Assembly: GCA_964453755.1 (NCBI GenBank)
Contig: CAYVPL010000001.1
Coordinates: 1-39,524, forward strand
Direction of reading: 5' to 3'
DNA: 39,524 nucleotides
From: an uncultured Planctomycetales bacterium
GTDB lineage: Bacteria > Planctomycetota > UBA1135
A program made the translations under genes and the position numbers. Shown in pieces: positions 5,412 to 39,524 of the stretch. The first letter of the stretch is position 1. Every line of letters begins with the position of its first letter. The notes under the pieces are model-generated. The model was not told the origin of the DNA, made no database searches, and saw nothing but the letters and a program-made list of their open reading frames with translations.

Positions 5412-5424
5412 TTCTGAAAAGGCT

Positions 5425-16745: not shown

Positions 16746-17278
16746 GTGGCAAGCGCGGCGGCGCGCGCGGCCAGCAGGAGATCGCAGACTTGGCGCAGCG
16801 CGCCGGCGCCGCCGGGCGCGGCGGTCACGTAGTCGGCGCGCGCGAGAATCTCCGGCATCGCGCCGGGCGGCGCGATGCGCAGGCCGGCGCAGTCGAAGAG
16901 CGGCAGATCGGGCAGGTCGTCGCCGAAAGCCGCGACCTGCTCGCGCGCCAAGCCGTGCGCGCGCAACAGCGGCCCGGTGACGGCTGATTTGTCAGAAATG
17001 CCGAGATGCACGATCGTCAAGCCAAGCCGGGACATCCGATGGCGCACCGCCGGCGTGTCGCGCCCGCTGACGACGGCCACTTCCAGGCCGCTTTTCAGCA
17101 GCTGCACCATGCCGTAGCCGTCGTGAATGTGAAAGACCACGCTTTCCTCGCCGCCGGGGCCGAGCGTGATTTTGCCGTCGGTCCAGCAGCCGTCCACGTC
17201 GGTCAGCAGCAGCCGCACTCGCGCGGCGCGCGCGAGAAGCTCCCGGGGAAACACGGCCGCGCCGGCCGCGCCGGTCAC
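16742..17278 (-). CDS. kdsC: KDO-8-phosphate phosphatase (HAD-IIIA)
   Basis: Contains LLLTDVDGCWTDG, SGR and FGDDLPDLP motifs. The GTG start overlaps the kdsD stop (GTGA). Confidence 0.88.
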   Translation of the reverse strand: MTGAAGAAVFPRELLARAARVRLLLTDVDGCWTDGKITLGPGGEESVVFHIHDGYGMVQLLKSGLEVAVVSGRDTPAVRHRMSRLGLTIVHLGISDKSAVTGPLLRAHGLAREQVAAFGDDLPDLPLFDCAGLRIAPPGAMPEILARADYVTAAPGGAGALRQVCDLLLAARAAALAT

Positions 17279-26956: not shown

Positions 26957-28207
26957 TCACGAGCTCCTCCGCGCCGGCTCGCCGGCCGCCGCCAGAACCT
27001 CTTCCTCCGTCAGCAGGCGCTTCGAGTCCTTCGCGCGCGCCAGCACCGCGCTGATGCGCGCCTCGGTGGGCTCGATGCCGCGCTGCTCGAGAAACCAGAT
27101 CACGTTTGACTTTCCGCTCATCGGCCCGACGCTGATCTTCTGCTGCAGGCCGAAGTCGTCGGCCGGCACGCCGCTGTAGACGCGGTTCGCCAGCCAGGCG
27201 TCGCCCTTGCGGAAGGCCTTGATGACGGCGGCCGCGTGCACGCCGGTGCCGGTCTCGAAGGCGTCCTCGCCGAAGACCGGATACTCGCCGCGGATCGGCC
27301 GGCCGACCGCTTCGCTGGCGGCGCGCACGTACTCGCCGAGTTTGCGCAGATCGCGGTCGATCCAGCCGAGCAGTTTGAGATTGACCAGCAGCAGATCCAT
27401 CTCGGTGTTGCCGGCGCGTTCGCCGATGCCCAGCGCGCAGGCGTGGGCGCGTTGCGCGCCGGCCGACAGCGCCACCAGCGTGTTCACGAGGCCCAGGCCG
27501 CGGTCCCGGTGGCCGTGCCAGTCGAGGCCGACGTGCTGCGCGCGGTTCTCGATCAGCCACGTCTTCAGCCAGTGAAAGAGATTGCGCACCGCCTCCGGCG
27601 TGACGCCGCCGACGGTGTCGCAGACGCACAGGCGGTCGGCGCCCTCCTCGATGGCGGCGCCGTTCAGTTCGGCGAGAATCGCCGGCGTCGAACGCACGGT
27701 GTCTTCGGTGACGAACATCAGCGGCAGGCCGTTCTGCTTGGCGAAGCGCACGGCGGCGCGCACGTTGGCCACCATCTTGGCGAGATCCCAGTCTTCGGCG
27801 TAGGCGCGGATGGGGGAGGAGCCGATGAAGGCGCAGACCTCGATCGGCGAGCCCAGCTGCTGCGCCATCTCCGCCACCGGCTCGATGTCAGAGACCACCG
27901 TGCGGCAGGCGACGTTGGGCTTGATGCGCATGCCCTGCATCTCGCGGGCCAGCGCGTAGATGTGCTCGCGGGCGTTGCGGCCCGCGCCCGGCAGGCCGAC
28001 GTCGGCGGTGTCGATGCCGAGATCGTTCATCAGCCGCACCAAGCGCAGCTTCGCCGCGAGCGGCGGATCCTCGACCGACGGGCACTGCAGGCCGTCGCGC
28101 AGCGTCTCGTCGTCGAGCAGCACCGGCGCGGCGGGCGCGGGCAGCACGAACGGGCCGGCGCCGGCCCAATCGTGGATCAATCCCTGCTGCTGAGCGCCGC
28201 GATCCAT
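26957..28207 (-). CDS. HMGL-like 2-isopropylmalate/homocitrate/citramalate synthase-family enzyme lacking the LeuA regulatory domain
   Basis: 416 aa with DETLRDGLQ, HGHRDRGLGLVNTLVAL and GIGERAGNTEMD motifs. It has no C-terminal LeuA_dimer domain. Confidence 0.8.
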   Translation of the reverse strand: MDRGAQQQGLIHDWAGAGPFVLPAPAAPVLLDDETLRDGLQCPSVEDPPLAAKLRLVRLMNDLGIDTADVGLPGAGRNAREHIYALAREMQGMRIKPNVACRTVVSDIEPVAEMAQQLGSPIEVCAFIGSSPIRAYAEDWDLAKMVANVRAAVRFAKQNGLPLMFVTEDTVRSTPAILAELNGAAIEEGADRLCVCDTVGGVTPEAVRNLFHWLKTWLIENRAQHVGLDWHGHRDRGLGLVNTLVALSAGAQRAHACALGIGERAGNTEMDLLLVNLKLLGWIDRDLRKLGEYVRAASEAVGRPIRGEYPVFGEDAFETGTGVHAAAVIKAFRKGDAWLANRVYSGVPADDFGLQQKISVGPMSGKSNVIWFLEQRGIEPTEARISAVLARAKDSKRLLTEEEVLAAAGEPARRSS

Positions 28208-28231
28208 CTGCGGCGATTATAGAATCTCCAC

Positions 28232-28984
28232 ATGTTCGTACGGAGCGACATGTTCATGATCACCTGCGCCGCGCGCACGGGCAGCACCATGCTCGTGAAG
28301 CTGCTCCGGTGCCATCCGTCGCTTCTGGTGCACGGCGAAGTCTGGGGCGATCGCATGGCGAGCCTGACCGGGCCGATCGGCAAGCGCATCCTCGAAGATC
28401 CGGCAGTGGGCGAAGAAATTGCGCGCGAGCGCTTCACCCGGCCGGAGAAAGTGCTCTACAAGTATTTTCTGCATTCGCCCGGCAAGAAGGCGGTCGGTTT
28501 CAAACTCAAGTACGACGAGATGACCCAACCGCGCTGGCACGAGGTGCGCGGCCTGGTCGAGCGCGACCAGGATCTGAAAATTCTCTTCCTGCACCGCGAG
28601 AACCTGCTCGAGCGCTACGTCTCCCACCAAGTGGTGATGAAGCAGACCGGAGTGACCAACGTGAAGGCGGGGGCGGCGGTGCCGCCGGTGAAACCCTTCA
28701 AGGTGGACGTCAAAGACTGCCTCGCCGACGTGGTCGAGACCCGCCGGCGCACCGCCGAGTTCAAGCGCAGCTTCGCCGGGCACCGCGCCATCGAGACCAC
28801 CTACGAGCGGCTGGTCCGCGCCCCGCAAGCAGAGAGCGACCTGCTGTTCGCCTTTCTCGGCGTGGATGCCGCGCCGGTCGAGATGGGCACGGAAAAAATC
28901 GTGCGCGCCCCGCTGCAGGAGCTGGTCCTCAACTTCGCCGAGGTCGAGCGCGCGCTGCAGGATCACGGCTGCATGGCGGTCTGA
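28232..28984 (+). CDS. Sulfotransferase (Stf0-like family)
   Basis: Has an N-terminal PAPS 5'-phosphosulfate-binding loop (ITCAARTGSTMLVKLL) and a LHRENLLERYVS 3'-phosphate-type motif. Alternative ATG starts lie at 28250 and 28256. Confidence 0.75.
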   Translation: MFVRSDMFMITCAARTGSTMLVKLLRCHPSLLVHGEVWGDRMASLTGPIGKRILEDPAVGEEIARERFTRPEKVLYKYFLHSPGKKAVGFKLKYDEMTQPRWHEVRGLVERDQDLKILFLHRENLLERYVSHQVVMKQTGVTNVKAGAAVPPVKPFKVDVKDCLADVVETRRRTAEFKRSFAGHRAIETTYERLVRAPQAESDLLFAFLGVDAAPVEMGTEKIVRAPLQELVLNFAEVERALQDHGCMAV

Positions 28985-28988
28985 CACC

Positions 28989-29549
28989 ATGAGCGCCGCC
29001 GCCCTCGACGTCCGCGAAACTTCCCTGCCCGGCGTGCTGCTGCTCGCGCCGCGCACGTTTCGCGACGCGCGCGGCTCGTTCTGGGAAGGATTTCAGGCCG
29101 AGCGCTACGCCGCCGCCGGGCTGCCGGGCCCCTTCGTGCAGGACAACTTTTCGCGCTCCACGCGCGGCGTGCTGCGCGGCCTGCACTTCCAGGATCCGCG
29201 CCCGCAGGGCAAACTGGCCTTCGTGCTGGAAGGCGCAGTCTGGGACGTGGCCGTGGACATCCGCCCCGACTCGCCGCGCTGCGGCCAGCACTTCGGCGTC
29301 GAACTCTCCGCCGCCAACGGCCTGCAGTTGTGGATCCCGCCCGGATTCGCGCACGGCTTCCAGGTGATTTCGCCCGAGGCGCTGTTCGCCTACAAGTGCA
29401 CCGAGCGCTACGTGCCCGAGGCCGACGCCGGCATTCGCTGGGACGACCCGCAACTGGCGATTCCCTGGCCTCTGCCCGCTCCGGTGCTGTCCGCCAAGGA
29501 CGCCGCCCTGCCGACGCTGGCGGAGTGGGCCGCGCGTCGGCGAAGATAG
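28989..29549 (+). CDS. rfbC: dTDP-4-dehydrorhamnose 3,5-epimerase
   Basis: 186 aa with RGSFWE...RGLHFQ...KLAFVLEGAVWDVAVDIR...GFAHGF. Confidence 0.92.
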   Translation: MSAAALDVRETSLPGVLLLAPRTFRDARGSFWEGFQAERYAAAGLPGPFVQDNFSRSTRGVLRGLHFQDPRPQGKLAFVLEGAVWDVAVDIRPDSPRCGQHFGVELSAANGLQLWIPPGFAHGFQVISPEALFAYKCTERYVPEADAGIRWDDPQLAIPWPLPAPVLSAKDAALPTLAEWAARRRR

Positions 29550-29553
29550 ACGG

Positions 29554-30438
29554 GTGCGCGTTCTCCTCGTCGGCCGCGATGGCCAGGTTGGCACCGAGTT
29601 GCGCCGCACGGCCCCGGCGGGCTTCGAGATCCGCGCGCCGGGCCTGGACGAGCTCGATCTGACCCGACCGGAAGAGGTGCGCGCGCTGATCCGCGGCTAC
29701 CGGCCGGAGTTGATTCTCAGCGCTGCAGCCTTCACCGCGGTGGACCGCGCCGAGGCCGAGCCCGCGCTGGCGCGCGCGCTCAACGCCGACGCCCCCGCGC
29801 TGCTGGCCGCCGAAGCCGCCCGGCTCGGCGCTGGAATCATTCACTATTCCACGGATTACGTCTACGACGGCTCGAAGCGCGGCCCCTGGCAGGAGGGCGA
29901 CGCGCCCGCGCCGCTCGGCGTCTACGGCGCGAGCAAGCTGGCCGGCGACGAGGCGGTGCTCGGCGCGGGCGCGCGCGCCGTGGTGTTGCGCACTTCGTGG
30001 GTCTACGCCGCGCACGGCCACAATTTCGTGCGCACCATGCTGCGCCTGGGGCGCGAGCAGGAGCGCTTGCGCGTCGTCGCCGACCAGATCGGCAATCCGA
30101 CCTGGGCGCGCGAACTGGCGCGCGCATCCTGGATCGTCGCGGGCCGCGGCCTCGAGCCGGGCGGCTTGTTCCACGCCGCGGGCGCCGGCGCCGTCAGTTG
30201 GCACGGCTTCGCCGAACGCATCTTTGCGCTCGCGCGGGAGCGGCGCCTGGGCGCCGACCTGCGCGTGCGCGCGGTGGATCCGATCGCCAGCGTCGAATGG
30301 CCGACCCCGGCGCGGCGCCCGGCGAACTCCACGCTCGACTGCGCGCGCCTCGCGCGCGAGCACGGCGCGCGCCTGCCCGCCTGGGAAGTCTCCCTGGCCG
30401 CCTGTCTGGACGAATTGGACGGAGCCGCGGGGGCCTGA
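29554..30438 (+). CDS. rfbD: dTDP-4-dehydrorhamnose reductase
   Basis: GTG start. Contains LLVGRDGQVG, STDYVYDG and YGASKLAGD motifs. Confidence 0.9.
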   Translation: MRVLLVGRDGQVGTELRRTAPAGFEIRAPGLDELDLTRPEEVRALIRGYRPELILSAAAFTAVDRAEAEPALARALNADAPALLAAEAARLGAGIIHYSTDYVYDGSKRGPWQEGDAPAPLGVYGASKLAGDEAVLGAGARAVVLRTSWVYAAHGHNFVRTMLRLGREQERLRVVADQIGNPTWARELARASWIVAGRGLEPGGLFHAAGAGAVSWHGFAERIFALARERRLGADLRVRAVDPIASVEWPTPARRPANSTLDCARLAREHGARLPAWEVSLAACLDELDGAAGA

Positions 30439-30439
30439 T

Positions 30440-32677
30440 TTGTTGAACCGCACCCGCGCCCTCTGGCAGAAAGCGCGCCATCTCGACCGCGACCTCAAGG
30501 AACAGGGCGCCACGGGCGCGCAGCGGCTGGCGCTGCTGGCGCAGAAAGCGCGCGCCGTGCTGATCCCGCCGGGCACGCGCCGCTTCCGGTTCTACAGCGC
30601 GATCGGCCGGCCGCTGGCGCGCCCGCTGCTGGCCTGGACGCACCATCAGCGCCACGGCAACGTGCCGCTGTGGAATCGCTGGCGCGAATTCGCGCCGGCT
30701 GCCGGCGAGATCGGCGCGCAGGAAGTCCTGGCTTTCCCGGAGTGCGCGGCGCCGCGCTGCACGATTCTGGTGCCGGTCTACGGCAAGTGGCGGCACACTT
30801 ACACCTGCCTGCGCTCGATTCTGCGCAACTCCAGCGGAGTCAGCTACGAAGTCATCGTGCTCGACGACTGCTCGCCCGACGAGACGGCGCAGCTCGCGCA
30901 AGTGGTGACCGGCGTTCGCTTCCTGCGCCACGCCGAGAACCTGGGCTTCTTGCGCAATTGCAACGCCGGCGCGCGCGCCGCCCGCGGCAGCACGCTACTT
31001 CTGCTCAACAACGACACCAGCGTCGAGCCCGGCTGGCTCGAAGCATTGCACGAGGCTCTCGACGCGGATCCGCAGGTCGGCATGGTCGGGGCCAAGTTGC
31101 TGGATCCGCGCGGCCGTCTGCAGGAAGCCGGCGGCATCGTGTGGCAGGACGGCAGCGGCTGGAACTACGGGCGCGGCGGCGACCCTGCCGCGTCGGAGTT
31201 CGACTATCTCAAGGAAGTCGATTACTGCTCCGGAGCCTGCCTGCTGCTGCCGACGGAACTGTGGCGTCAACTCGGCGGCTTCGACGAGCGCTACGCTCCG
31301 GCCTACTACGAAGACACCGACCTGGCCTTCGCCGTGCGCGCGGCCGGGCGCAAGGTCGTCTATCAACCGCGCGCGGCGGTCGTCCATCTCGAAGGGATCT
31401 CGCACGGCACCGACGTCGGCTCCGGGATGAAGCGCTATCAGGAGATCAACCGCCTGAAGTTCACGGACAAATGGCGCGCCGTGCTCGAAGCCGAGCACAG
31501 CGCCGGACCCGCCGACGTCTTCCGCGCCCGCGATCGCAGCCAGCACAAGGCTCACGTCGCGGTCGTGGATCACACCCTGCCCGCCTGGGACGCCGACGCC
31601 GGCTCGCGCCTGACCTGGATGTACCTGCGCCTGCTGGTCGCCGAAGGATGTCAAGTCAGCTTCCTGCCGATGAACCTCTTCGCCGCGCAGCCCTACGCGC
31701 GCAAGTTGCAGGATCTCGGCGTCGAAGTGCTGTGCGGACACGCCCACGGGCCGCAGCACCGGCTCTGGCTGGCGCGCCACGGCCGCGAGTTGGACGCCGT
31801 CTATCTGCACCGCCCGCACGTGGCCGAGGCCTATCTCTCGCACGTCCAGGAGCACGCCCCGCAAGCGCGCCTGGTCTACCAATGCCACGACCTGCACCAT
31901 CTGCGCGAGCAGCGCCGGCACGAAGCCGAAGGCGGGCGCGGCGCGGGCAGCGAGGCGGCGCAGTGGCGCAAAATGGAAGAGCGCGTGCTCGCCGCGGCGC
32001 AAGTGATCCACACGCCGAGCACCTACGAGCGTGAGTGGATCGCGCGGCAGTTCCCCGGCAAGACCGTGCGCGACGTGCCGATCTACTTCTGGGAGCGCGT
32101 GCCGCTCGACGGCCGTCCGGCGGACGGCGGCGATCTGACCGGGCGCTCGGCCGGCGACATGCTTTTCGTCGGCGGCTTCCGCCATCCGCCGAACGAGGCC
32201 GCCGTGCTGTGGTTCGCGCGCGAAGTTCTGCCGCGGGTGCGCGAGCTGGCGCCGAACGCGCGGCTGCTGCTGGCCGGCGCCCATCCGACGCCGGCGGTGC
32301 AGGCACTCCCCGCGGACAGCGTTCTCATCTTGGGCCGGCTCAGCGACGAGCAGCTGGCCGCGGCCTATCGGTCGGCGCGCATCGCCGTCGTGCCGATGGT
32401 GTGGGGCGCCGGCGTCAAAGGAAAGCTGATCGAGGCGCTGGCCTGGGGCTTGCCGGTCGCGTGCACGCCGATCGGGGCAGAAGGGGTCGCGGGCATCGAA
32501 TCGGCGGCGTCCATCGGCGCCAGCCCGGAGGAATTGGCAGTCGCTAGTGCGGCGCTGCTGCAGGACGACGCGCAGTGGCGCGCCCGGCGCCAAGCCGGCC
32601 TGGAACTCGTGGCCCGCTCCTTCTCGGCGCAGCGCGCCCGCGAAATTGTCAGACTCGATCTTGCCCGCCGCGCATGA
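30440..32677 (+). CDS. Bifunctional glycosyltransferase (N-terminal GT2 rhamnosyltransferase-like domain + C-terminal GT4/GT1 domain)
   Basis: The TTG start is 1 nt after the rfbD stop, giving 745 aa. GT2 motifs: ILVPVYGKW...VIVLDDCSPDET...LLLNNDT...YEDTDL. GT4 motifs: FVGGFRHPPN...GAGVKGKLIEALAWGLPVACT. Confidence 0.85.
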   Translation: MLNRTRALWQKARHLDRDLKEQGATGAQRLALLAQKARAVLIPPGTRRFRFYSAIGRPLARPLLAWTHHQRHGNVPLWNRWREFAPAAGEIGAQEVLAFPECAAPRCTILVPVYGKWRHTYTCLRSILRNSSGVSYEVIVLDDCSPDETAQLAQVVTGVRFLRHAENLGFLRNCNAGARAARGSTLLLLNNDTSVEPGWLEALHEALDADPQVGMVGAKLLDPRGRLQEAGGIVWQDGSGWNYGRGGDPAASEFDYLKEVDYCSGACLLLPTELWRQLGGFDERYAPAYYEDTDLAFAVRAAGRKVVYQPRAAVVHLEGISHGTDVGSGMKRYQEINRLKFTDKWRAVLEAEHSAGPADVFRARDRSQHKAHVAVVDHTLPAWDADAGSRLTWMYLRLLVAEGCQVSFLPMNLFAAQPYARKLQDLGVEVLCGHAHGPQHRLWLARHGRELDAVYLHRPHVAEAYLSHVQEHAPQARLVYQCHDLHHLREQRRHEAEGGRGAGSEAAQWRKMEERVLAAAQVIHTPSTYEREWIARQFPGKTVRDVPIYFWERVPLDGRPADGGDLTGRSAGDMLFVGGFRHPPNEAAVLWFAREVLPRVRELAPNARLLLAGAHPTPAVQALPADSVLILGRLSDEQLAAAYRSARIAVVPMVWGAGVKGKLIEALAWGLPVACTPIGAEGVAGIESAASIGASPEELAVASAALLQDDAQWRARRQAGLELVARSFSAQRAREIVRLDLARRA

Positions 32678-33543
32678 CGCACGCTCCGCATCCGCCCGCC
32701 GCGCCGGCGCCGCGTTTCACGACGCGGCCGGTGTGCGTGCACTTCCACGTGTTCAAGAACGCGGGCACCACGCTCGACGGCGCGCTGCGGCGCGAGTTCG
32801 GCATCGCCTTCGCCGAGTTCGACGGGCCGCGCGCCAACTACGTGCTCGAGCACGACGAGTTCCGCGCCTTCGTCGAGACGCGTCCGGCGCTCCGCGCCGT
32901 CTCCAGCCATCAAGTCCGCTTTCCGCTGCCCGCCATCTACGACGTGCGCTGGCGCCCGCTCCTGCTGATCCGCCATCCGCTCGACCGCGCGCTCTCGGCC
33001 TACAGCTTCCACCGCCGCGCCCGCACGCGCAGCGCCTCGGCGCTGCAGGCCAAGAAGTCGGATCTGCGCGGCTACGTGCGCTGGATGCTGGACCTCGGAC
33101 CGGTCAGCCTGATCTGCAATTTCCAGACGACCTTTCTCTCCACCGGGCCCGGCACCGGCAAGCGGCCCGTACTGGCCGCCGCCTGCGCTCGCCTGCGCGA
33201 AGCCGCGCTGGCCGGCACCGTCGAGCGCTTCGGCGAAAGCCTGCTCTGCGCCGAGCGCAATCTGGCGGCCGATTTCCCGGGACTCGATTTGTCCAATCAC
33301 TCCCGCAACGTCACGCGCGAGCGCCGCGGCCGCCTCGAGGAGCGCCTCGCGCAATTGCGCGCCAAATTAAGCGCGGATCTGCACGCCGAACTCGAGCGCC
33401 GCAATGAACTCGATTTCGCCCTGCACCAGGAAGCCGCGCGCGAACTCGACGGGCGCCTGCAGCGGCTCGGCGACGATCTCCAGCCGGCCTTCGAGGACTT
33501 CCGCGCGCGGTGCGCCGCGCGCGAGGCGGCCGCGGCGCGATGA
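32674..33543 (+). CDS. Sulfotransferase (family-2-like)
   Basis: ATGA overlap with the upstream stop. FHVFKNAGTTL matches the HxPKxGGT PAPS loop, and IRHPLDRALSAYSF matches the RDPxxRxxSxY 3'-phosphate motif. Confidence 0.7.
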   Translation: MTHAPHPPAAPAPRFTTRPVCVHFHVFKNAGTTLDGALRREFGIAFAEFDGPRANYVLEHDEFRAFVETRPALRAVSSHQVRFPLPAIYDVRWRPLLLIRHPLDRALSAYSFHRRARTRSASALQAKKSDLRGYVRWMLDLGPVSLICNFQTTFLSTGPGTGKRPVLAAACARLREAALAGTVERFGESLLCAERNLAADFPGLDLSNHSRNVTRERRGRLEERLAQLRAKLSADLHAELERRNELDFALHQEAARELDGRLQRLGDDLQPAFEDFRARCAAREAAAAR

Positions 33544-34610
33544 GCGGAGCGGCTCCGGTGATCGTGTGCGTGATCGGCATGCACCGCAGCGGCACTTCGC
33601 TGTTGGCGCGCCTGCTCAACATCGCCGGCGTCGAACTCGGCGCAGCCGCCAGTCTCGCGCGCGCCGCGGACGACAATCCGCGCGGCTTCTGGGAGCACGA
33701 GGGCCTGCGCGAAATCAACGACGAGTTGCTGCGCGCCTTCGGCGGCTCGTGGATGAATCCGCCCGAGCTGCCGGAAGGCTGGGCGCAGGATCCGCGGGTG
33801 GCGCCGCTGCGCGCGCGCGCCCGGGAGTTGGTGGCCCGCGAGTTCGGCGGCCGCGCGCTGTGGGGATTCAAGGATCCGCGCACGACCTTGCTGGCGGATT
33901 TTTGGCGCGACATCCTGCCCGGCCGCATCGCCTGGATCGTGGCGCTGCGCAATCCGCTGGAGGTCGCGGATTCCCTCAAGCGGCGCGACGGCTTCCCCTC
34001 GGTGCTGTCCGAGGACTTGTGGAACGCCTACACGCGAGCCGCCTTCCGCAACGCGCCCGCGGCCGAGCGCGCAATCGTTCACTTCGAGCGCCTGCTCAGC
34101 GAACCCGCGGCCGAAGTCGAGCGCTTGATCCGGACCCTGCGCCTGCCGATCCCGCCGCCCGGCCCGGAGGCCGCCGCCCGGATGCGGGAAGAAGCCGCCC
34201 GGGACCTGCGTCATCACAGTCACGGATTGGACGAAATACGCGGTTCCGAGGAACTGCGCCCGGACACCTGCGAGCTCTACCTCCGGCTGTGGAACGGAGG
34301 GGACGTGGGCCAGCTCCTGGCGCAGCCCGAGGTCGGCTTCGGTCGCGCCTTCAAGGATCTGCTCGCGGATTTCGCCCGGCTCAAGAGCGAGCAGGACCTG
34401 ATGCGCACCGCACTGACCGATCGTGAACTGCAGGCTGAGGAAGCGCTGCGCGAAGTGGCGCGCACGCAGCGCGAGGCCACCGAGTGGCGGGACGAGGCGC
34501 TGCAACTGCGTTCCGAGGTCGGCCTGCTCAAGCAGCGCACGGAATACCGGCTCGGCGAGCGCCTGCGGCGCGTGTGGCGCCGGCTGCGCGGACGCGCCCC
34601 GCAGTCCTAG
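33540..34610 (+). CDS. Sulfotransferase (family-3-like) with a C-terminal coiled-coil extension
   Basis: ATGA overlap. Contains VIGMHRSGTSLLARLL (PAPS loop), FKDPRTTLL and ALRNPLEVADSL. The last ~80 aa are heptad-like and charged (LKSEQDLMRTALTDRELQAEEALREVARTQREATEWRDEALQLRSEVGLLKQ). Confidence 0.75.
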   Translation: MSGAAPVIVCVIGMHRSGTSLLARLLNIAGVELGAAASLARAADDNPRGFWEHEGLREINDELLRAFGGSWMNPPELPEGWAQDPRVAPLRARARELVAREFGGRALWGFKDPRTTLLADFWRDILPGRIAWIVALRNPLEVADSLKRRDGFPSVLSEDLWNAYTRAAFRNAPAAERAIVHFERLLSEPAAEVERLIRTLRLPIPPPGPEAAARMREEAARDLRHHSHGLDEIRGSEELRPDTCELYLRLWNGGDVGQLLAQPEVGFGRAFKDLLADFARLKSEQDLMRTALTDRELQAEEALREVARTQREATEWRDEALQLRSEVGLLKQRTEYRLGERLRRVWRRLRGRAPQS

Positions 34611-34621
34611 AATCCCGCGGC

Positions 34622-35410
34622 ATGCGGATCCGCGAGCAGGTCGGGGCGATCCTGCGGCGCCGGGTCCTGATCGGCGCCTTTCTCAGCGTGGATCTGCGCC
34701 TGAAGTACCGGCGCTCCTCGCTGGGCTTCCTGTGGTCTCTGCTGAATCCGCTGCTGATGCTGACGGTGATGGCGGCGGCCTTCAGCTTCGTCTTCGACCG
34801 CGGCAGCGGCCAGGGCTCCTTCGCGCTGCACCTCTTTGCCTGCCTGCTGCCCTGGCAGGCGCTGACCGCTTCGGTGGAGCAGGGCGGGCGCTCGCTGGTG
34901 AAGGGCGAGAACCTCCTGCTGCAGTATCCGCTGCCCAAACTGCTGCTGCCGCTGCGGCGCACGCTGTTCGCATTCGTCGAATACTTCTTCGCGCTGCTCG
35001 CCCTCGGCCTGGTCGCGGGCTTCATCGGCTTCCGCCCGAGCTGGGCCCTGCTGTGGCTGCCGGTCGGCGTGCTGCTGCTCTTTCTGTTCGCGCTCGGCCT
35101 GGCCTCGGTGGCGGCGGTGGTCACGGTCTACTTCCGCGACGCGGTGCACCTGCTCGGCGTCACGCTGCGCGCCTGGTTCTATCTCACGCCGGTGATCATT
35201 CCTTATACGGCGCTGCCGGAATCGGTGCGCCAGTGGGCCGAACTCAATCCGGCCTACCATCTGATCAAGATCTTCGACGACGTGATCAACCTGGGCGTCG
35301 CGCCCGACGCGCGCACCCTGCTCATCTCCGCCGCCTGCGCCCTGGCCATGCTGAGCCTCGGCCTGTGGGTGGTTGCCAAGTTCGAGCACAAGCTCGTGTT
35401 CCGCCTGTGA
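34622..35410 (+). CDS. wzm: ABC-2 type polysaccharide export permease
   Basis: 262 aa with DLRLKYRRSSLGFLWSLLNPLL, the signature start of Wzm/TagG/KpsM permeases, and six TM segments. Confidence 0.88.
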   Translation: MRIREQVGAILRRRVLIGAFLSVDLRLKYRRSSLGFLWSLLNPLLMLTVMAAAFSFVFDRGSGQGSFALHLFACLLPWQALTASVEQGGRSLVKGENLLLQYPLPKLLLPLRRTLFAFVEYFFALLALGLVAGFIGFRPSWALLWLPVGVLLLFLFALGLASVAAVVTVYFRDAVHLLGVTLRAWFYLTPVIIPYTALPESVRQWAELNPAYHLIKIFDDVINLGVAPDARTLLISAACALAMLSLGLWVVAKFEHKLVFRL

Positions 35411-36150
35411 GCGCCGACCTCGGCATCCAGTTGCGCGAGGTCAGCCTGACCTACCGCTTGTACTCCAACAAGCGGCCGAGCCTGAAGGCTTCGCTGGTGT
35501 CGGCGCTGCGCGGCGGCAAGGACGAGTTCCGCGATCTGCCGGCGCTGCGCGACGTCAACCTGAGCATTCAGCCGGGAGAGCGCGTCGGCATCGTCGGCCG
35601 CAACGGCGCGGGCAAGACCTCGCTGCTGCGGCTGCTGGCCGGAATTTTTCCGCCGACGGCCGGCGTCGTCGAGGTGAAGGGCTTCGTCGTGCCGCTGTTC
35701 CGCCTCGGCCTCGGCTTCGAGCCGGAGCTGACGGGCGAGGAGAACCTGATCCAGGCCGGCGCGCTGCTGGACATCCCCGCCGCCACCATGCGCGCGCGCG
35801 CCGACGCGGTCTTCGAGTTCGCCGAGATCGGCCGCTTCCGGCACACGCCGCTCAAGTACTACTCGCGCGGCATGGCCACGCGGCTGTCCTTCGCCACCGC
35901 CTGCGAGGTGGATCCGCAGATCCTGCTGCTGGACGAGGTCTTCGGCGGCGGCGACATGTCCTTCCGCGAGAAGGCGGTGAAGCGCATGCAGGAGTTGATT
36001 CTGCGCACGCCGATCGTGGTGATGGTCTCGCACAATCTCGAGACGGTGCAGGACATCACCAATCGCGTGCTGTGGCTCGACGATGGCCAGGTGCGCATGG
36101 ACGGCCCGCCCGGCGAGGTGATCCCCGCCTATGAAGCCGCCTGCGCCTGA
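35407..36150 (+). CDS. wzt: Polysaccharide export ABC transporter ATP-binding protein (short form, no C-terminal carbohydrate-binding domain)
   Basis: GTGA overlap. Contains Walker A (GRNGAGKTSLLRLL), the signature YSRGMATRL and Walker B (LLLDEV). At 247 aa it is the nucleotide-binding domain only. Confidence 0.88.
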   Translation: MSADLGIQLREVSLTYRLYSNKRPSLKASLVSALRGGKDEFRDLPALRDVNLSIQPGERVGIVGRNGAGKTSLLRLLAGIFPPTAGVVEVKGFVVPLFRLGLGFEPELTGEENLIQAGALLDIPAATMRARADAVFEFAEIGRFRHTPLKYYSRGMATRLSFATACEVDPQILLLDEVFGGGDMSFREKAVKRMQELILRTPIVVMVSHNLETVQDITNRVLWLDDGQVRMDGPPGEVIPAYEAACA

Positions 36151-36946
36151 GCTCGCGGTTTCCCTGGTCTCCCACGCGCCCGACTTCGCGGTGCTCGAGC
36201 GCACGCTGGCGGCGCTGGAGCGCGCGGCGGCCCATGCTCGCGCCGCCGGCGCGCTCGCCGGACACCATCTCACGATCGTGGATCACGGCCCGGGCACGGA
36301 GCACGCCGCGCGCCTGCGGGCGACCGGCGCGCGCCTGCTCGAACCGGGGCACAACCGCGGCTTCGGCGCCGGCCACAATCAGGCGCTGCGCGGCGCAACG
36401 GCCGAGTTCGCGCTGATCCTGAACCCCGACGCGGTGATGGCGGAGGACGCGCTGACCGCCGGCCTCGCCTTCCTGCGCGCGCATCCGGACGTCGTGCTGG
36501 CCGCGCCGCAGGTGGACACCGGCCCCGGCGGGCCGCGGCACTTGTGCAAGCGCGAGCCGGATCCCTGGACGCTCTTCGTGCGCGGCTTCGGCCCGGCCTG
36601 GCTGCGCCGCCGCTGCCGCGCGCGCCTCGAGCGTTACGCGCTGGCCGATCTGGATCCGGAACTCGAACGTCTCGACGTCCCGCTGGCGAGCGGCAGTTTC
36701 ATGCTCCTGCGCACGGCCGCCTTCCACGTGGTGGGCGGATTCGACGAGCGCTTCTTCCTCTACTTCGAGGACTTCGACCTCTGCCGGCGCCTGCGCGCGG
36801 CCGGCGGCCGCATCGGCTACGCGCCGCAGATGATCATTTCCCATTACGCCGGCGGGGCAGCGCGCAAAGGCGGCCCGCACCGGCGCCTGTTCCTCGCGTC
36901 GGCCTGGAAATATTTCCGCCGCTACGGTTTCCGGCCACCCGGCTAG
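36131..36946 (+). CDS. GT2 glycosyltransferase (WbbL/rhamnosyltransferase-like)
   Basis: 20-nt overlap with wzt. Contains VSLVSHAP...GHNRGFGAGHNQAL...LNPD...FFLYFEDFDLCRR. Confidence 0.8.
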   Translation: MKPPAPELAVSLVSHAPDFAVLERTLAALERAAAHARAAGALAGHHLTIVDHGPGTEHAARLRATGARLLEPGHNRGFGAGHNQALRGATAEFALILNPDAVMAEDALTAGLAFLRAHPDVVLAAPQVDTGPGGPRHLCKREPDPWTLFVRGFGPAWLRRRCRARLERYALADLDPELERLDVPLASGSFMLLRTAAFHVVGGFDERFFLYFEDFDLCRRLRAAGGRIGYAPQMIISHYAGGAARKGGPHRRLFLASAWKYFRRYGFRPPG

Positions 36947-36955
36947 ACTGCCGGG

Positions 36956-38083
36956 ATGCGGCCGCTTTCCTTCCTCATTCCCGCCGCGGCTCTGCTCCTC
37001 GCCGCCTGCGGCGGGTCCTCGGCGCAGCCGGCGCCGGAGCGGGCAATGACCGGCGTGCTCGACGGCTTCCATCCCGCCGCCGTCGCCTTCGCCGCGCAGG
37101 TGAGCCGCGAGTTCGAGGACAACGAGCTCGATCCGGAGGAGTTGCGCCGCTGCAGCGGCTTCGCCCAGTTGTTGGCCGCCTCGCAGAAAGTCGCGAAGGA
37201 CTTCCCGGTCGCCGAGGCGGACCAGGAACACCTGGCCTACTTCGCGCTGTGCCTCGGCAGCGTGCGCGAGAAGCCGGAGGCGTGGGCGTTGCGACAGCAC
37301 GCGGATCCGGGCAGCGGAGGCGGGGCGCTCGCCAGTCTGGACCTGCCGCCGGACCAAACCGGCTCGGCGACCTTCCTGGTGCGCATCGCGCCGGATCCGA
37401 AGAAGGGATGGAAGTTGGCCAGTTGGCCGCCGCGCCGGCGCGAAGCCTTCCAACCCTATCCTCCGGACAGTCCGCGCCTGCACCTGCAGTCTTGGGCCGC
37501 CGGCTCGGTGCCGCCGGACGTGCAGGAGCGCTTCCGCAAGCAATTCGGCTCCGAGATTCCCGCGGACTCCGCGTATGCGGAGGTCGAGTGGCAGCGCGTC
37601 GTGGTTCACCACTCTCTGATGGCGAACGCGGAAGGCGCTGATCCTTGGCAGCGGCTGAAGCTGACCGTGCAAGACGTGCTGATCCCGATGCGCGTTCAAG
37701 ACGATGCCGGATTGCCCGCCGAGCCTCTGGTGATTCTGGCCGGCCCCGACGTGCCCTCTTCCCTGGTCTTGGGAGTGCTGGAATCGCTGGCCCAACCGAA
37801 AACGCGCTGGCCGCAGATCTGGATCGGCCTGCCCGGCGAGATGCTGGACCGTTGTTTCCTCTTGGACCAGCGTCCCGCTTGGGAGGCCAGCGCCGGGGAC
37901 GTGATCCTGAACCTCGGCGGCAGCGAAGACGAATGGGCCGCGGCCCTCGCCGGCAGCGCCGCGGGCGGAGCCGTCGGCCTGCGCATCGATCCCGCCCTGC
38001 CGGCCTCAGCCCTGTTCGCCGATCTCGAGAGCCTGCAGCAGCGCAAGCTGGCCCGGATCTTCATCGCCCTGCCGGCGCCCTGA
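36956..38083 (+). CDS. Lipoprotein of unknown function (375 aa)
   Basis: Has a signal peptide with a lipobox (LLLAAC). It starts 9 nt after the GT2 gene. Its composition is protein-like, whereas the antisense 579-aa ORF is Arg/Gly-rich shadow. Confidence 0.7.
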   Translation: MRPLSFLIPAAALLLAACGGSSAQPAPERAMTGVLDGFHPAAVAFAAQVSREFEDNELDPEELRRCSGFAQLLAASQKVAKDFPVAEADQEHLAYFALCLGSVREKPEAWALRQHADPGSGGGALASLDLPPDQTGSATFLVRIAPDPKKGWKLASWPPRRREAFQPYPPDSPRLHLQSWAAGSVPPDVQERFRKQFGSEIPADSAYAEVEWQRVVVHHSLMANAEGADPWQRLKLTVQDVLIPMRVQDDAGLPAEPLVILAGPDVPSSLVLGVLESLAQPKTRWPQIWIGLPGEMLDRCFLLDQRPAWEASAGDVILNLGGSEDEWAAALAGSAAGGAVGLRIDPALPASALFADLESLQQRKLARIFIALPAP

Positions 38084-38085
38084 GC

Positions 38086-38595
38086 ATGAAGGCCGCTTGC
38101 TCAGTTCTGCTGGCCGCCGCGCTGCTGCCGGCCTGCAGCGAGCAACGGGCGCTGCGCACGGAGCATCCGGCACAGTTGGTCGAAGATCTTGCCCGCAGCC
38201 TGATCGGTCCGGCCCGCGACTGGCTGGAGGAGGAGCAGTCGCGTGAGGAAGACCTCACCCTGGGCCACCCCTCCAGCGCCGAAATCTCCAGCCACGCCAT
38301 CAACTTCATGCGCCTGGTGGATCACGCGCGCGGCCGCCTGGAGCCGCAGCTGCCGTCCGGGACGCGCGGCGTGCCGGTGCCGGCGAGTTTGAGCAACAAC
38401 TTGCGCATCCTCGCCGCCAGCCTCGGCGCGGCAGCGCCTGAGGAAGTCACTGCCGCCGAAGAATCGCGCACGCCCAACTCCGCGCGCGTGCGCTTGACGA
38501 TTGCTCCCGCGGATCAGGAAGTCCGCTTCTGGATCTTCACTCTCGAGCGCCGCGACGAGATCTGGCGCTTCACGGCCGCGCCGCGCCGCGGATAG
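38086..38595 (+). CDS. Small lipoprotein of unknown function (169 aa)
   Basis: The ATG at 38086 is 2 nt after the upstream stop. Has a lipobox (ALLPAC). Confidence 0.65.
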   Translation: MKAACSVLLAAALLPACSEQRALRTEHPAQLVEDLARSLIGPARDWLEEEQSREEDLTLGHPSSAEISSHAINFMRLVDHARGRLEPQLPSGTRGVPVPASLSNNLRILAASLGAAAPEEVTAAEESRTPNSARVRLTIAPADQEVRFWIFTLERRDEIWRFTAAPRRG

Positions 38596-38604
38596 CATTC
38601 CCCA

Positions 38605-39524
38605 ATGCCGGCAGTCCGCCGTCGAGAGTCGCGCAGCCTCGTGCTCCAGGCCCTGAAGGCCTGGCTGCAGAAGCCCGACGGCGGCCCGCTGCGCCTCGAC
38701 GGCATGCACCCCGCCGACGTCGCGGACGTGCTGTGGCTGGACTTGGACGACGAGGATTCCCGCCGCATCTTCCGCGCCCTCCCGGAGGAAGAGTCCGCCG
38801 CGGTGCTGGAAGAAACCGATCCGCGTTATCAATCCGTGCTGCTCGGCGGCGCCGATCCGCAGTGGATCGGCCGTCTCGTCGGCCGCCTGCCCTCCGACGA
38901 CGCCACCGACGTGGTCGCGCAGCTGCCGGAGGAAGTGCGCGGCGAAGTCATGTGCTTCGTCACGCCGGAGGACGCGGCCGAGATCCGCCACCTCGCCGAG
39001 TACGCGCCAGACACCGCCGGCGGCATCATGACCACCAACTTTCTCACCGCGCGCGCGGACGAGAAGGTCGGCGACGTGCTCAAGCGCATCAAGCGCGACG
39101 AGGGCGAGGCCGAGACGGTCTACGTCGTCTACGTGGTGGACGGGCGCGGCGCGCTGCAGGGCGTGGTGTCCACGCGCGAATTGTTGGAAGCGGGCATCCA
39201 CCAGGATCTGCACGACATCATGAATCCGGACGTCATCCACGCCAAAGTGGACGACGACCGCGAGGAAGTGGCGCGCCGCCTCCTGCACTACAACCTCACG
39301 ATGATCCCGGTGGTGGACGCGCGCGGCCTGATCGTCGGCCTCATCACCGGCGACGACGCGCTGGAAGTGCTCGAGCGCGAGGGCTCGGAAGACGCGCTGC
39401 TGCTGGCCGGCGCCGGCGTCCATTCCGACCTGGCCGATTCCGCCGTCGCCAAAGTGCTGCGCCGCGCGCCGATGCTGGTGGTTCCGGTGGTGGCCGGCCT
39501 GCTGATCTCCAAAATCGTCCACAC
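38605..39524 (+). CDS. mgtE: Magnesium transporter MgtE, N-terminal ~306 aa (gene runs off the right edge)
   Basis: My own translation from the ATG at 38605 gives ...HPADVADVL...LPSDDATDVV...DTAGGIMTT...CBS pair (VYVVDGRGALQGVVSTRELL; IPVVDARGLIVGLITGDDALEVLE), then the first TM segment. It is absent from the ORF track because there is no stop in the window. Confidence 0.88.
   Translation, partial: MPAVRRRESRSLVLQALKAWLQKPDGGPLRLDGMHPADVADVLWLDLDDEDSRRIFRALPEEESAAVLEETDPRYQSVLLGGADPQWIGRLVGRLPSDDATDVVAQLPEEVRGEVMCFVTPEDAAEIRHLAEYAPDTAGGIMTTNFLTARADEKVGDVLKRIKRDEGEAETVYVVYVVDGRGALQGVVSTRELLEAGIHQDLHDIMNPDVIHAKVDDDREEVARRLLHYNLTMIPVVDARGLIVGLITGDDALEVLEREGSEDALLLAGAGVHSDLADSAVAKVLRRAPMLVVPVVAGLLISKIVH

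Follow-up and report, generated by a model that had tools for sequence, protein, structure and literature searches.

A conserved planctomycete operon predicted to make a sulfated, rhamnose-containing glycan, with a candidate chain-capping sulfotransferase

Nine tightly packed, co-directional genes on the + strand of an uncultured planctomycete (28232-36946; Table 1) form a conserved operon, with support from a third-position GC frame plot, Pfam and conserved synteny. From sequence comparison and structural models, the operon probably directs the cytoplasmic assembly of a sulfated polysaccharide that contains L-rhamnose; a Wzm/Wzt ABC transporter would export the polymer, and one of the operon's sulfotransferases, g6, would sulfate its growing end. 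The DNA analyzed here, called the window, is the whole 39,524-nucleotide stretch; its source organism is represented by a MAG contig, which is placed in Planctomycetota by its nearest GTDB loci. An earlier note on this DNA had proposed a rhamnose-linked glycan locus that depends on an ABC transporter and contains three PAPS-type sulfotransferases, and every in silico test that was run supports it. The note had also found no characterized cluster with this architecture, which still stands as far as checked. The locus type is uncharacterized, but it is widespread.

Table 1. Features of the operon and of the genes that follow it.
Feature	Position (nt)	Strand	Remarks
g1, sulfotransferase, NodH-like (COG4424-type)	28232..28984	+	250 aa; Pfam Sulfotransfer_3, NodH profile match
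g2, RmlC, dTDP-4-dehydrorhamnose 3,5-epimerase	28989..29549	+	PF00908, 1.3e-65, full-length match
g3, RmlD, dTDP-4-dehydrorhamnose reductase	29554..30438	+	PF04321, 1.5e-94, full-length match
g4, GT2 + GT4 two-module glycosyltransferase, predicted polymerase	30440..32677	+	745 aa, TTG start
g5, carbohydrate sulfotransferase, HS2ST-like (Sulfotransfer_2-type)	32674..33543	+	289 aa; core gene
g6, Sulfotransfer_3 + coiled-coil-type helix, candidate chain-capping enzyme	33540..34610	+	core gene
g6, Sulfotransfer_3 domain	33540-34322	+	residues 1-261
g6, coiled-coil-type helix	34344-34589	+	residues 269-350; AF2 single helix, 82 residues
g7, Wzm, ABC-2 permease	34622..35410	+	ABC2_membrane (PF01061), 1e-14
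g8, Wzt, ATP-binding subunit	35407..36150	+	247 aa; ABC_tran (PF00005), 5.3e-22
g9, single-module GT2, predicted primer/adaptor (rhamnosyl)transferase	36131..36946	+	GT2-like (PF13641), 1.6e-10
g10, predicted lipoprotein	36956-38083	+	signal peptide + lipobox Cys
g11, predicted lipoprotein	38086-38595	+	signal peptide + lipobox Cys
mgtE	38605 to contig end	+	third gene downstream of g9

The nine-gene run, as first drawn, is recovered by the GC3 frame plot and by a codon-usage gene call. Its genes are separated by gaps of 4, 4, 1 and 11 nt, or joined by ATGA overlaps (g4/g5 and g5/g6) and a GTGA overlap (g7/g8). These are the kinds of junction that had been described, except that Wzt and g9 overlap by 20 nt. 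Nor does the packing stop at 36946, where the operon had been taken to end; the co-directional run continues through g10, g11 and mgtE, with gaps of 9, 2 and 9 nt, to the end of the contig. Whether g10 and g11 are operon members is doubtful. Neither has a Pfam or NCBIfam match, and among relatives they are present, duplicated or absent (missing in the locus L009). Protein lengths of 289, 356 and 262 aa are identical in independent gene calls of public assemblies; other gene callers start g1 at 28256, giving 242 aa. A mechanical ORF at 35373-36134 was rejected as lying in the wrong frame (no Pfam match), and Wzt is read in the frame of Table 1 instead.

The loop motifs ARTGST, KNAGTT and HRSGTS are all present in the window's proteins, and the PAPS-binding residues of the 5'-PSB and 3'-PB motifs are invariant or nearly so in the families of g1, g5 and g6. 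With both motifs kept, and with matches by Pfam, profile and fold, the three PAPS-loop proteins are predicted to be sulfotransferases, as had been thought. They do not, however, represent three different families. Here, two Pfam families and three lineages are found: g1 and g6 both match Sulfotransfer_3 (1.5e-8 and 1.1e-8, respectively) and show a distant relationship to each other (hhalign probability 88%), while g5 is separate.

The first of these, g1, had been called Stf0-like. It is better described as NodH-like than as Stf0 proper; its family profile matches PDB 9vki, “LPS sulfotransferase NodH,” with E 9.5e-13, compared to 1.4e-3 for Stf0 (1tex), and a Pfam scan of g1 gives no match to PF09037. 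R15, G17 and S18, with R122 and S131, are nearly invariant in its family. The family-2-like assignment of g5 is borne out by its model (pLDDT 92.5), although its Sulfotransfer_2 score is sub-threshold (5.8e-4; 20.5 bits, under the 22-bit cut-off). This AF2 model has a heparan-sulfate 2-O-sulfotransferase-like fold, with 4ndz/3f5f as the best Foldseek matches (probability 1.0, TM 0.54). Residues H25, K28, G31, S77, H79, R100 and S108 are invariant. Pfam bears out g6 as family-3-like, and the best Foldseek matches to its model are TPST, CurM-ST, Stf1 and Stf9. Conserved in g6 are MxRSGTS (GMHRSGTS in nearly all members), WE, KD(PR), R137 and S145. Such proteins are not scarce. The g5 family holds 869 clusters at 50% identity (E <= 1e-30), and for marine Vibrio, capsules that contain rhamnose and are sulfated have been published, with three sulfotransferases and predicted clusters of the ABC-transporter kind (PMC11641403); the rarity ascribed to sulfated bacterial polysaccharides was overstated.

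Comparison with planctomycete relatives divides the three sulfotransferases. The core g4-g5-g6-Wzm-Wzt-g9 is kept in the loci L001, L004, L007, L009 and L012-L014, down to 43% identity in g5 (89% in L001, 74% in L004, 53% in L007, 43% in L009). The gene for g1 is found in L001 and is missing from L004, L007 and L009. Two sulfotransferases are counted in L004 and three in L007, where the third is of Sulfotransfer_1 type; gene spacing suggests three in L013 and L014 as well. Thus, the number three holds for the window, but not the view of three equivalent decorators: g5 and g6 are a fixed pair, and g1, judged from these comparisons, is a variable accessory that differs between strains.

The partner of this pair is g4, whose description as a 745-aa GT2+GT4 protein is confirmed by Pfam (GT2, 5e-22, residues 105-320; GT4-type Glyco_trans_1_4, 2.4e-21, residues 574-736). 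Of 80 species loci, drawn from different phyla, 50 contain the pair g4+g5. Outside the window's lineage, the g6-like and g4-like parts are a single ORF in every case (18/18), arranged as sulfotransferase, a heptad-rich coiled-coil spacer whose length varies, GT2 and GT4; g4 shares 36-46% identity with the C-terminal portion of these fusions. A Dyella protein from an O-antigen locus, in which the order is methyltransferase, spacer, GT2, GT4, is also similar: over 668 aa, its C-terminal portion and g4 share 40% identity. By homology, g6 is the detached arm of the sulfotransferase/coiled-coil/polymerase fusion seen in other phyla.

The predicted structure of g6 fits such an arm. Its AF2 model (a monomer, pLDDT 91.9) has one single helix after the catalytic domain, which as a coiled coil is short (82 residues). 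One heptad register runs throughout, with 65% hydrophobic residues at positions a/d, compared to 29% elsewhere. The tail is basic and amphipathic (muH 0.6-0.7); the final 31 residues include ten Arg/Lys and three Asp/Glu.

In the ABC-transporter glycan pathway, a coiled coil is a marker of terminating enzymes (PMC11231755). Systems of the WbdD-WbdA/WbbB type use a multi-module cytoplasmic polymerase together with a coiled coil that carries a catalytic domain at its distal end; in the split form, the terminator bears a membrane-binding helix at its C-terminus as well (PMC11231755). Terminator and polymerase are split in WbdD-WbdA of E. coli O9a and Klebsiella O3, a form that g6 and g4 reproduce. 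Terminator, coiled coil and polymerase are fused in Klebsiella O12 WbbB and O7 ORF6, a form reproduced by the g6/g4 homologs in 18 species. Because the fusions have the layout of these known terminator-ruler-polymerase enzymes, the window is read as the split form. By analogy, g6 resembles, in shape and in placement, the enzymes that usually cap chains of this kind and determine how long they grow. Because g5 and g6 are the fixed core pair, and g6 the detached arm of the fusion, a more specific role can be proposed for g6 than for a general decorator. Its distal domain, however, is a PAPS-type sulfotransferase, not a methyltransferase, kinase or Kdo transferase, and has no sequence similarity to the WbdD/WbbB catalytic domains; its capping role is only predicted.

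The transporter counsels caution. Permease g7 has multiple TM-like segments and matches NCBIfam galactan_ABC_perm and KpsM, both below cut-off, while g8 matches Wzt/RfbE (2.2e-60) and also TagH. In the published prototypes, the cap that controls export is accompanied by a C-terminal module on Wzt (PMC11231755). No such carbohydrate-binding module is found in the window's Wzt or in that of any planctomycete relative, and for this reason capping by g6 is rated as only plausible. This same feature speaks for another reading, possible although not favored, in which g1, g5 and g6 are all in-chain decorators that produce a regiospecific pattern. The helix of g6 would then do no more than support oligomerization and keep the enzyme on the membrane close to the polymerase, and the stoichiometry of transporter and polymerase would determine chain length, as it does in Klebsiella O2a. 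Export in Klebsiella O1 and O2a, which is CBM-less, needs no length-determining cap (PMC11231755), and the number of sulfotransferases among relatives varies as a set of decorations might. Yet a catalytic domain set far from the polymerase across a coiled coil of variable length is the layout of a terminator (PMC11231755). That layout is kept in the 18 fusions across phyla, and the Dyella homolog, with a methyltransferase in the same N-terminal slot and a Wzt_C transporter, is a classical capped system.

With g6 taken as the capping enzyme, the pathway may be outlined. The glycan would most likely be built on undecaprenyl phosphate. RmlC and RmlD are proposed to complete dTDP-L-rhamnose; g9 would prime the chain, and g4 would act as a two-site polymerase. 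The HS2ST-like g5 would use PAPS to sulfate the polymer. In complex with g4 at the membrane, g6 would most likely sulfate the growing non-reducing end at a set distance, in the manner of WbdD with WbdA, and g1 would be an optional third sulfotransferase. The locus's enzymes, g4 included, have no TM segments, which places assembly and sulfation where PAPS is available. The role of g9 draws on a match to the rhamnosyltransferase model TIGR01556 (7e-7, below cut-off) and on its occurrence at the same position in relatives; g9-like genes 34-47% identical are found in the Marinobacter and L063 loci.

It would be surprising if one or more of the three sulfotransferase-fold proteins served another acceptor (lipid A/core, a small molecule or a protein), used another donor or were an inactive scaffold. 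Acceptor specificity cannot be read from sequence; g5 falls under its Pfam cut-off, and the O-antigen cluster of Aeromonas salmonicida has a sulfotransferase-domain gene with no sulfate reported in the O-antigen (PMC4483657). Against this stand the conserved PAPS-binding residues of all three families, the translational overlap of the sulfotransferase genes with their neighbors, the placement of g5 directly after the polymerase gene in 16 species, and the covalent fusion of g6 in 18. Further, in four species (D. ruminis, a Bryobacteraceae MAG, Marinobacter albus and a Methylococcaceae MAG) g5 homologs have an APS kinase next to them or nearby; the M. albus locus also contains another sulfotransferase and a gene resembling sodium:sulfate symporters.

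When almost all of the remaining called genes in the window were scanned with Pfam, no rmlA/B, initiating transferase, waaL, OPX/PCP or PAPS genes were found, as the earlier note had said. In L004, rmlA and rmlB adjoin the operon, and in L009 a WecA-family gene lies two genes away. The locus is rhamnose-linked through RmlC and RmlD, but the suggested rhamnan is not established; because g4 joins one inverting-type GT2 to one retaining-type GT4 module, a heteropolymer is equally possible. As for its destination, the product is unlikely, but not very unlikely, to be something other than an LPS O-antigen: capsule-like, an exopolysaccharide or a glycan on another acceptor (protein or glycolipid). 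Where sulfated bacterial glycans with ABC-transporter clusters have been published, they are capsules (PMC11641403), the M. albus locus encodes capsule-associated WcbI and LicD domains, and waaL is missing from the window. Conversely, the window holds LPS genes (KdsD, KdsC and an LptD_N-like protein) and no KpsD/E/C/S-type capsule export or linker genes, and the closest characterizable context, that of Dyella, resembles a typical O-antigen locus of the ABC-transporter kind, containing rmlBACD and a Wzt with the Wzt_C module.

Several known systems resemble the operon in part. Rhizobial NodH and LpsS and mycobacterial Stf0/Stf1 share its PAPS-binding motifs, g1 being similar to NodH 9vki and g6 in fold to Stf1 and Stf9. 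These are stand-alone enzymes whose acceptors are Nod factor, LPS or trehalose glycolipids, and none is known to lie inside a Wzm/Wzt operon or to be joined to a coiled coil. The synechan (xss) cluster of Synechocystis reportedly makes a sulfated exopolysaccharide with dedicated sulfotransferases, but is said to be plasmid-borne, to follow a Wzx/Wzy-type pathway and to use other enzymes.

The logic of capping by sulfation has a precedent in mammalian matriglycan, where the HNK-1 sulfotransferase sulfates the terminal sugar of a chain made by the dual-GT polymerase LARGE1, causing termination (PMC9746966). This, however, is a eukaryotic Golgi system that is homologous in the sulfotransferase fold only and that lacks both ABC export and the coupling through a coiled-coil ruler. 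The capsule of Vibrio sp. KMM 8419 is a chemically proven sulfated polysaccharide that contains L-rhamnose, and its predicted cluster includes genes for dTDP-Rha, for an ABC transporter and for three sulfotransferases; there too, no functions are assigned to the enzymes (PMC11641403). It differs in its 80-gene capsule region, KpsMT-type export, cysNDC inside the cluster and glycosyltransferases RgpF, WbbL and GT61, and no sulfotransferase/coiled-coil protein is described (PMC11641403). Similar in gene content is the uncharacterized, Xanthomonadales-type locus of Dyella sp. 2YAF14 (L083), which shares the GT2-GT4 protein, a g5-like sulfotransferase, Wzm/Wzt and rmlCD. It differs in having the methyltransferase and spacer on its polymerase, Wzt_C, rmlA and rmlB, and no g6-like gene. 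From this context, g4 is predicted to be an O-antigen-type polymerase. A further likeness is that the Dyella locus adjoins a Cys/Met PLP-enzyme gene.

The G+C content of the window is about 70%, and many false frames clutter its raw lists of open reading frames. An unbroken series of plus-strand genes from 28232 to the contig end emerges both from a third-position GC frame plot and from a codon-usage gene caller trained on this region; inspection of start codons fixed the coordinates listed below. The nine packed, co-directional genes of the earlier note (g1 to g9) are real and joined as it described (g7 and g8, for example, by a GTGA overlap), except that the overlap of g8 and g9 is 20 nt. 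The operon interval given there, 28232-36946, stops short, however, of the end of the packed run, which also takes in two predicted lipoprotein genes (g10 and g11) and mgtE. A mechanical ORF at 35373-36134 was rejected in favor of the g8 frame, being out of frame and without a family match. Products of 289, 356 and 262 aa also appear in public gene calls from other assemblies of the same organism.

Features of the window, with coordinates and strand
Feature	Coordinates	Strand	Remark
Sigma-70 gene	3353-4186	-	in low-G+C stretch
parB-like gene	4581-5411	+	in low-G+C stretch
Gene without Pfam match	5425-6354	-	in low-G+C stretch
Gene without Pfam match	6451-8433	+	660-aa product; in low-G+C stretch
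805-aa protein	11992-14409	-	LPS-related block (11992-18261); no family match
778-aa protein	14409-16745	-	LPS-related block; weak LptD_N/LptA match only
KdsC-like HAD phosphatase	16742-17278	-	LPS-related block
KdsD (SIS+CBS)	17275-18261	-	LPS-related block
g1	28232-28984	+	NodH-like sulfotransferase
g2	28989-29549	+	RmlC
g3	29554-30438	+	RmlD
g4	30440-32677	+	GT2+GT4; TTG start, 745 aa
g5	32674-33543	+	HS2ST-like sulfotransferase
g6	33540-34610	+	Sulfotransfer_3 domain and helix
g7	34622-35410	+	Wzm
g8	35407-36150	+	Wzt
g9	36131-36946	+	GT2; 271 aa
g10	36956-38083	+	predicted lipoprotein
g11	38086-38595	+	predicted lipoprotein
mgtE	38605 onward	+	runs off contig end

Across 27500-39524, a consensus promoter scan finds no promoter-like sites, and a consensus terminator scan finds terminator-like sites no more numerous than in shuffles. 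Because these scans are uninformative, the operon limits are drawn from spacing and synteny only. Upstream, and divergent from the operon, lie genes for an HMGL-like synthase and a Cys/Met PLP enzyme. The gap between the HMGL-like gene and g1 (window 28181-28255) is only 24-75 nt, depending on the start codons chosen, and no sigma-70-like promoter is found in it; either promoter and coding start overlap here, or promoters in this lineage follow other signals.

The operon had been read as a glycan pathway of the Wzm/Wzt type, and this reading is supported. Here, g7 matches PF01061 (1e-14) and g8 matches PF00005 (5.3e-22), so that an ABC-2 permease and an ATP-binding subunit of the Wzm/Wzt/TagGH type adjoin each other. 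Against NCBIfam, g8 scores both as Wzt/RfbE (2.2e-60) and as TagH (6.3e-39), each below the equivalog cut-off. In Pfam, g4 has a GT2 domain at residues 105-320 and a GT4-type domain at 574-736. Membrane segments are absent from g1-g6 and g9, and no Pfam scan of the window returns a flippase, polymerase or co-polymerase family of the Wzx/Wzy/Wzz type. The Wzt protein (247 aa) consists of ABC_tran only; a C-terminal carbohydrate-binding module was not found. Wzt likewise has no C-terminal extension in the planctomycete relatives L001, L004, L007, L012 and L013, and in L009 and L014 the extension is at most 11-14 residues.

Two rhamnose genes are present, with Pfam matches of g2 to RmlC (1.3e-65) and of g3 to RmlD (1.5e-94). 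RmlA and RmlB were not found in the window; in L004, rmlA and rmlB are directly upstream. The earlier note had also listed what the window lacks, and Pfam scans of nearly all called genes agree, finding no genes for PAPS synthesis, RmlA/B, an initiating transferase, WaaL or OPX/PCP proteins. (In L009, a Glycos_transf_4 gene of the WecA family is two genes away from the module.) The word "rhamnan" for the polymer is another matter. It is not established, g4 pairing one inverting-type with one retaining-type GT module, a pairing compatible with a rhamnose-hexose copolymer. The second glycosyltransferase, g9, is a GT2 with a weak rhamnosyltransferase signal in NCBIfam. PDB searches with g4 and g9 give generic GT2 matches or none, from which donor and linkage are not readable.

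Three of the nine genes encode predicted sulfotransferases. The first, g1, matches Sulfotransfer_3 in Pfam (1.5e-8). Its family profile finds PDB entry 9vki, "LPS sulfotransferase NodH", at 9.5e-13, and the Stf0 structure 1tex only at 1.4e-3; no match of g1 to PF09037 (Stf0) appears at E <= 0.01, while a few distant g1 homologs do carry that domain. Thus, g1 is NodH-like within the same clan, and not an Stf0 protein in the strict sense. In the family alignment, R15, G17, S18, R122 and S131 are nearly invariant.

For g5 and g6, single-sequence PDB searches return nothing useful, and the family profile of g5 gives only sub-significant hints of HS6ST/HS2ST. The models say more, AlphaFold and Foldseek together yielding a sulfotransferase fold for both proteins. 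The assignment of g5 to family 2 is borderline by sequence, where it scores 20.5 bits against Sulfotransfer_2 (PF03567), under the Pfam cut-off of 22. However, the sole significant Foldseek match of its model (pLDDT 92.5) is heparan sulfate 2-O-sulfotransferase (4ndz/3f5f; probability 1.0, TM 0.54), a Sulfotransfer_2 member, and this predicted fold supports a Sulfotransfer_2-type enzyme. The third protein, g6, matches Sulfotransfer_3 (1.1e-8), and the top 22 Foldseek matches of its model (pLDDT 91.9) are all sulfotransferases, including TPST, CurM-ST, Stf1 and Stf9.

All three proteins keep the residues expected to bind PAPS, in a 5'-phosphosulfate loop and a 3'-phosphate R...S motif. The two motifs are seen in the g5 family as K28, G31, T32, R100 and S108, invariant or nearly so. 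Conserved in the g6 family are MxRSGTS (almost always as GMHRSGTS), KDPR, R137 and S145, with R16-S20, R137 and S145 invariant in the alignment. Profile-profile comparison finds a remote relationship between g1 and g6 (probability 88%) and sets g5 apart; therefore, the "three different families" of the earlier note are three lineages but only two Pfam families, g1 and g6 both falling in Sulfotransfer_3.

The nearest GTDB genomes with the locus are Planctomycetales/Planctomycetota MAGs. The order g4-g5-g6-Wzm-Wzt-g9 is kept in relatives whose g5 is 89%, 74-75%, 52-58% and down to 43% identical, and the closer of these also have flanking genes in common with the window. The ends of the operon differ. 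In L004, rmlB and rmlA stand where g1 stands in the window; L007 has GSCFA, MBOAT and an additional Sulfotransfer_1 gene at the operon end, a set that L013 and L014 probably share, judged by gene spacing; and L009 has a sulfatase and an MBOAT gene close by. With a conserved block and variable ends, g5 and g6 therefore belong to the core, and g1 is one of several interchangeable accessories. Surface-glycan loci usually look like this, with a conserved engine and variable decoration.

The two lipoprotein genes that closely follow g9, g10 and g11, are doubtful members of the system; they have no Pfam or NCBIfam match, and their occurrence differs among relatives. In the 89% relative (L001, 14280-17243) there is an additional 87-aa gene, as well as a second g10 paralog, 41% identical; g10 is missing in L012, and L014 passes straight from g9 to mgtE.

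The module is spread well beyond Planctomycetota. The g5 family comprises 869 clusters (50% identity) at E <= 1e-30, and 3,492 at E <= 1e-10. Among the best 80 GTDB loci by g5 match, 50 have a full-length GT2-GT4 gene of the g4 type no more than 10 kb away (in 16 it immediately precedes the g5-like gene), 27 have a g6-like sulfotransferase, and 12 have a detectable Wzt. Among the taxa represented are Halieaceae, Congregibacter, Marinobacter, Microbulbifer, Dyella, Okeania, Trichodesmium, Chthoniobacterales and Acidobacteria. In four species, the g5 homolog has an APS kinase as a direct or close neighbor (Desulforamulus ruminis, a Bryobacteraceae MAG, Marinobacter albus and a Methylococcaceae MAG), and the M. 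albus locus adds a sodium:sulfate-symporter-like gene, a further sulfotransferase, rmlCD and a g9-like GT2. Such neighbors tie the g5 family to both activated sulfate and rhamnose on evidence from outside the window.

Two of these loci deserve description. That of the cultured M. albus M216 (L084, 4130-20145) is a "sulfation island" with genes for a g9-like GT2, RmlD, RmlC, a 1,124-aa sulfotransferase-spacer-GT2-GT4 fusion, a g5-like sulfotransferase, WcbI, a LicD-domain protein, a Sulfotransfer_1 protein, the APS kinase and a CitMHS / sodium:sulfate-symporter-like transporter; Wzm/Wzt was not detected within 10 kb. In the Firmicute D. ruminis (L010/L011, CP002780.1, 10001-20118), the g5 homolog adjoins a 968-aa methyltransferase-GT4-GT2 protein, with the APS kinase, three more methyltransferases and rmlABCD, and this looks like the locus of a sulfated, methylated rhamnose glycan in a Gram-positive organism. 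Both sulfotransferase families also occur inside much larger multidomain proteins (for example, P0263, P0282, P0340, P0368 and P0382; P0130 and P0135), the g5-like domain at either end of proteins of 870-1,450 aa, the g6-like domain elsewhere fused to GT2 or methyltransferase domains.

The architecture of g6 points to a more specific function. In the predicted monomer, the sulfotransferase domain (residues 1-261) is followed by one continuous helix (269-350). A single heptad register runs over all 82 residues of this helix, with 65% hydrophobic residues at a/d against 29% elsewhere, and the last ~20 residues of g6 form a strongly basic amphipathic segment. From these features of the model, we infer that g6 may assemble as an oligomeric coiled coil.

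Outside the planctomycete lineage, wherever a g6-like sequence precedes a g4-like one (18 of 18 loci), the two form a single ORF of ~1,020-1,240 aa. Here, g6 aligns to the N-terminal part, sometimes right through its helix; g4 residues ~90 to 741 align C-terminally at 36-46% identity; and the spacers between are heptad-rich and of variable length. The separate window proteins g6 and g4 presumably interact. A study of Klebsiella O4/O7 describes a coiled-coil protein with a terminating enzyme at its distal end as the marker of chain-terminating systems in the ABC-transporter pathway; polymerase and coiled-coil protein may be one polypeptide, as in WbbB and O7 ORF6, or two, as in WbdD with WbdA (PMC11231755). 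Thus, by the layout of g6, the 18 fusions and this published marker, the window encodes a split sulfotransferase / coiled-coil / polymerase machine.

A Dyella locus offers an instructive comparison. In Dyella sp. 2YAF14 (L083, 2916-14426), the same polymerase, 40% identical over 668 aa, carries an N-terminal methyltransferase and a spacer in a 1,112-aa protein. The locus, of the classical capped O-antigen type, also has rmlBACD, a g5-like sulfotransferase, Wzm, and a Wzt bearing Wzt_C, the carbohydrate-binding module. A Cys/Met PLP-enzyme gene adjoins both this locus and the window operon. Horizontal transfer from Xanthomonadales was considered for this common neighbor and rejected, the two being only 39% identical; the likeness is probably coincidence.

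We consider it probable that the operon works, as a whole, by the following scheme. RmlC and RmlD would finish dTDP-L-rhamnose; g9 would prime a lipid-linked acceptor; the two GT modules of g4 would polymerise the chain; g5 and g6, plus g1 in this strain, would transfer sulfate from PAPS in the cytoplasm; and Wzm/Wzt would export the finished chain.

A more specific role for g6, to which we give somewhat less than equal weight, would be to cap the chain at its non-reducing end and to contribute to the control of its length. In its favor are the layout, the fusions, their variable spacers and the methyltransferase that occupies the same slot in Dyella. Against it is the Wzt of the planctomycete lineage, in which a cap-binding module is missing. 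Among the prototypes, such a module goes with a cap that controls export, whereas CBM-less systems, Klebsiella O2a and O1 among them, do not depend on a cap (PMC11231755). Wzt-like ATPases near fusions in Halieaceae (L027, 14001-15215; L077, 15600-16766) have C-terminal extensions of ~140-150 aa that do not match Pfam Wzt_C; these could be an undescribed cap-binding module, and they speak neither for nor against a cap-reading transporter in the fused systems.

We put forward tentatively, with doubt outweighing conviction, the proposal that the sulfate itself is a chain-terminating cap, g6 and its fused homologs being the PAPS-dependent counterpart of WbdD/WbbB. The coiled coil would act as a ruler that fixes how far the sulfotransferase stands from the GT2-GT4 polymerase, and only chains of a given length would be "sulfate-stopped". 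With the WbdD/WbbB-type class, g6 shares a catalytic domain plus helix, and the g6/g4 homologs share the terminator-polymerase fusion; the cap-reading Wzt module of that class, however, is not present in the window Wzt. A eukaryotic precedent for sulfation as a chain stop is HNK-1ST, whose substrate is the chain made by LARGE1, a dual glycosyltransferase (PMC9746966), much as is proposed here for g6 and g4.

The earlier interpretation was right in outline and needed refining in detail. As for novelty, the pathway and the enzyme superfamilies are already known. Related work on sulfated rhamnose-containing capsules reportedly exists for Cobetia. Marine Vibrio make such capsules from predicted ABC-transporter clusters with several sulfotransferases, whose roles are unassigned (PMC11641403), and MAG surveys record sulfotransferase genes in some Planctomycetes at the level of presence or absence (PMC9723792). 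The literature searched yielded no description of this module or of a planctomycete sulfated glycan locus, and no paper in it ties a sulfotransferase with a coiled coil to the termination of chains in bacteria. A bioinformatic census of terminators (Mann, Kimber and Whitfield, 2019, Glycobiology 29:822) is said to have reported "new chemistries", and may have anticipated sulfotransferase terminators. Three aspects appear to be uncharacterised: that the terminator slot of a GT2-GT4 polymerase is occupied by a sulfotransferase, that this arrangement has a split form alongside a CBM-less transporter, and that Planctomycetota carry it.

If the proposal is true, g6 would be, within the literature searched, the first case of bacterial glycan chain-length control by sulfation. 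PAPS sulfation would join the few capping reactions (methyl, phosphomethyl, Kdo) known from bacterial ABC-transporter pathways, the planctomycete transporter would serve a capped system without having a module to read the cap, and bacteria would provide a testable parallel to HNK-1ST/LARGE1. The question can be put to experiment now, since the fused form has cultured carriers (Marinobacter albus M216, Congregibacter variabilis IMCC43200). The polymerase-sulfotransferase module is found in Halieaceae, Marinobacter, Microbulbifer, Dyella, filamentous cyanobacteria, Verrucomicrobia and Planctomycetota; therefore, bacterial sulfated surface glycans may far outnumber the chemically studied cases. 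This, if true, would bear on carbon and sulfur cycling in sea and soil, and on why so many bacteria carry sulfatases. Planctomycetes are known to consume sulfated polysaccharides of algae; a conserved locus on the chromosome with which they build a sulfated polysaccharide themselves would add a new aspect to the biology of their cell envelope. The enzymes of the module are also candidates for making defined sulfated polysaccharides.

The rest of the window holds, further upstream, genes for Na+/H+ antiporters, a formyltransferase, thioredoxin and ScpA, and an LPS-related block; tRNA genes and Rfam families were not found in the window. From KdsD, KdsC and the weak LptD_N match in that block it follows that the organism has Kdo/LPS, and the 778-aa and 805-aa proteins may be divergent Lpt components. 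The G+C content dips to 0.64-0.67 at window 3000-8500, against ~0.70-0.75 elsewhere, over the four genes that open the table.
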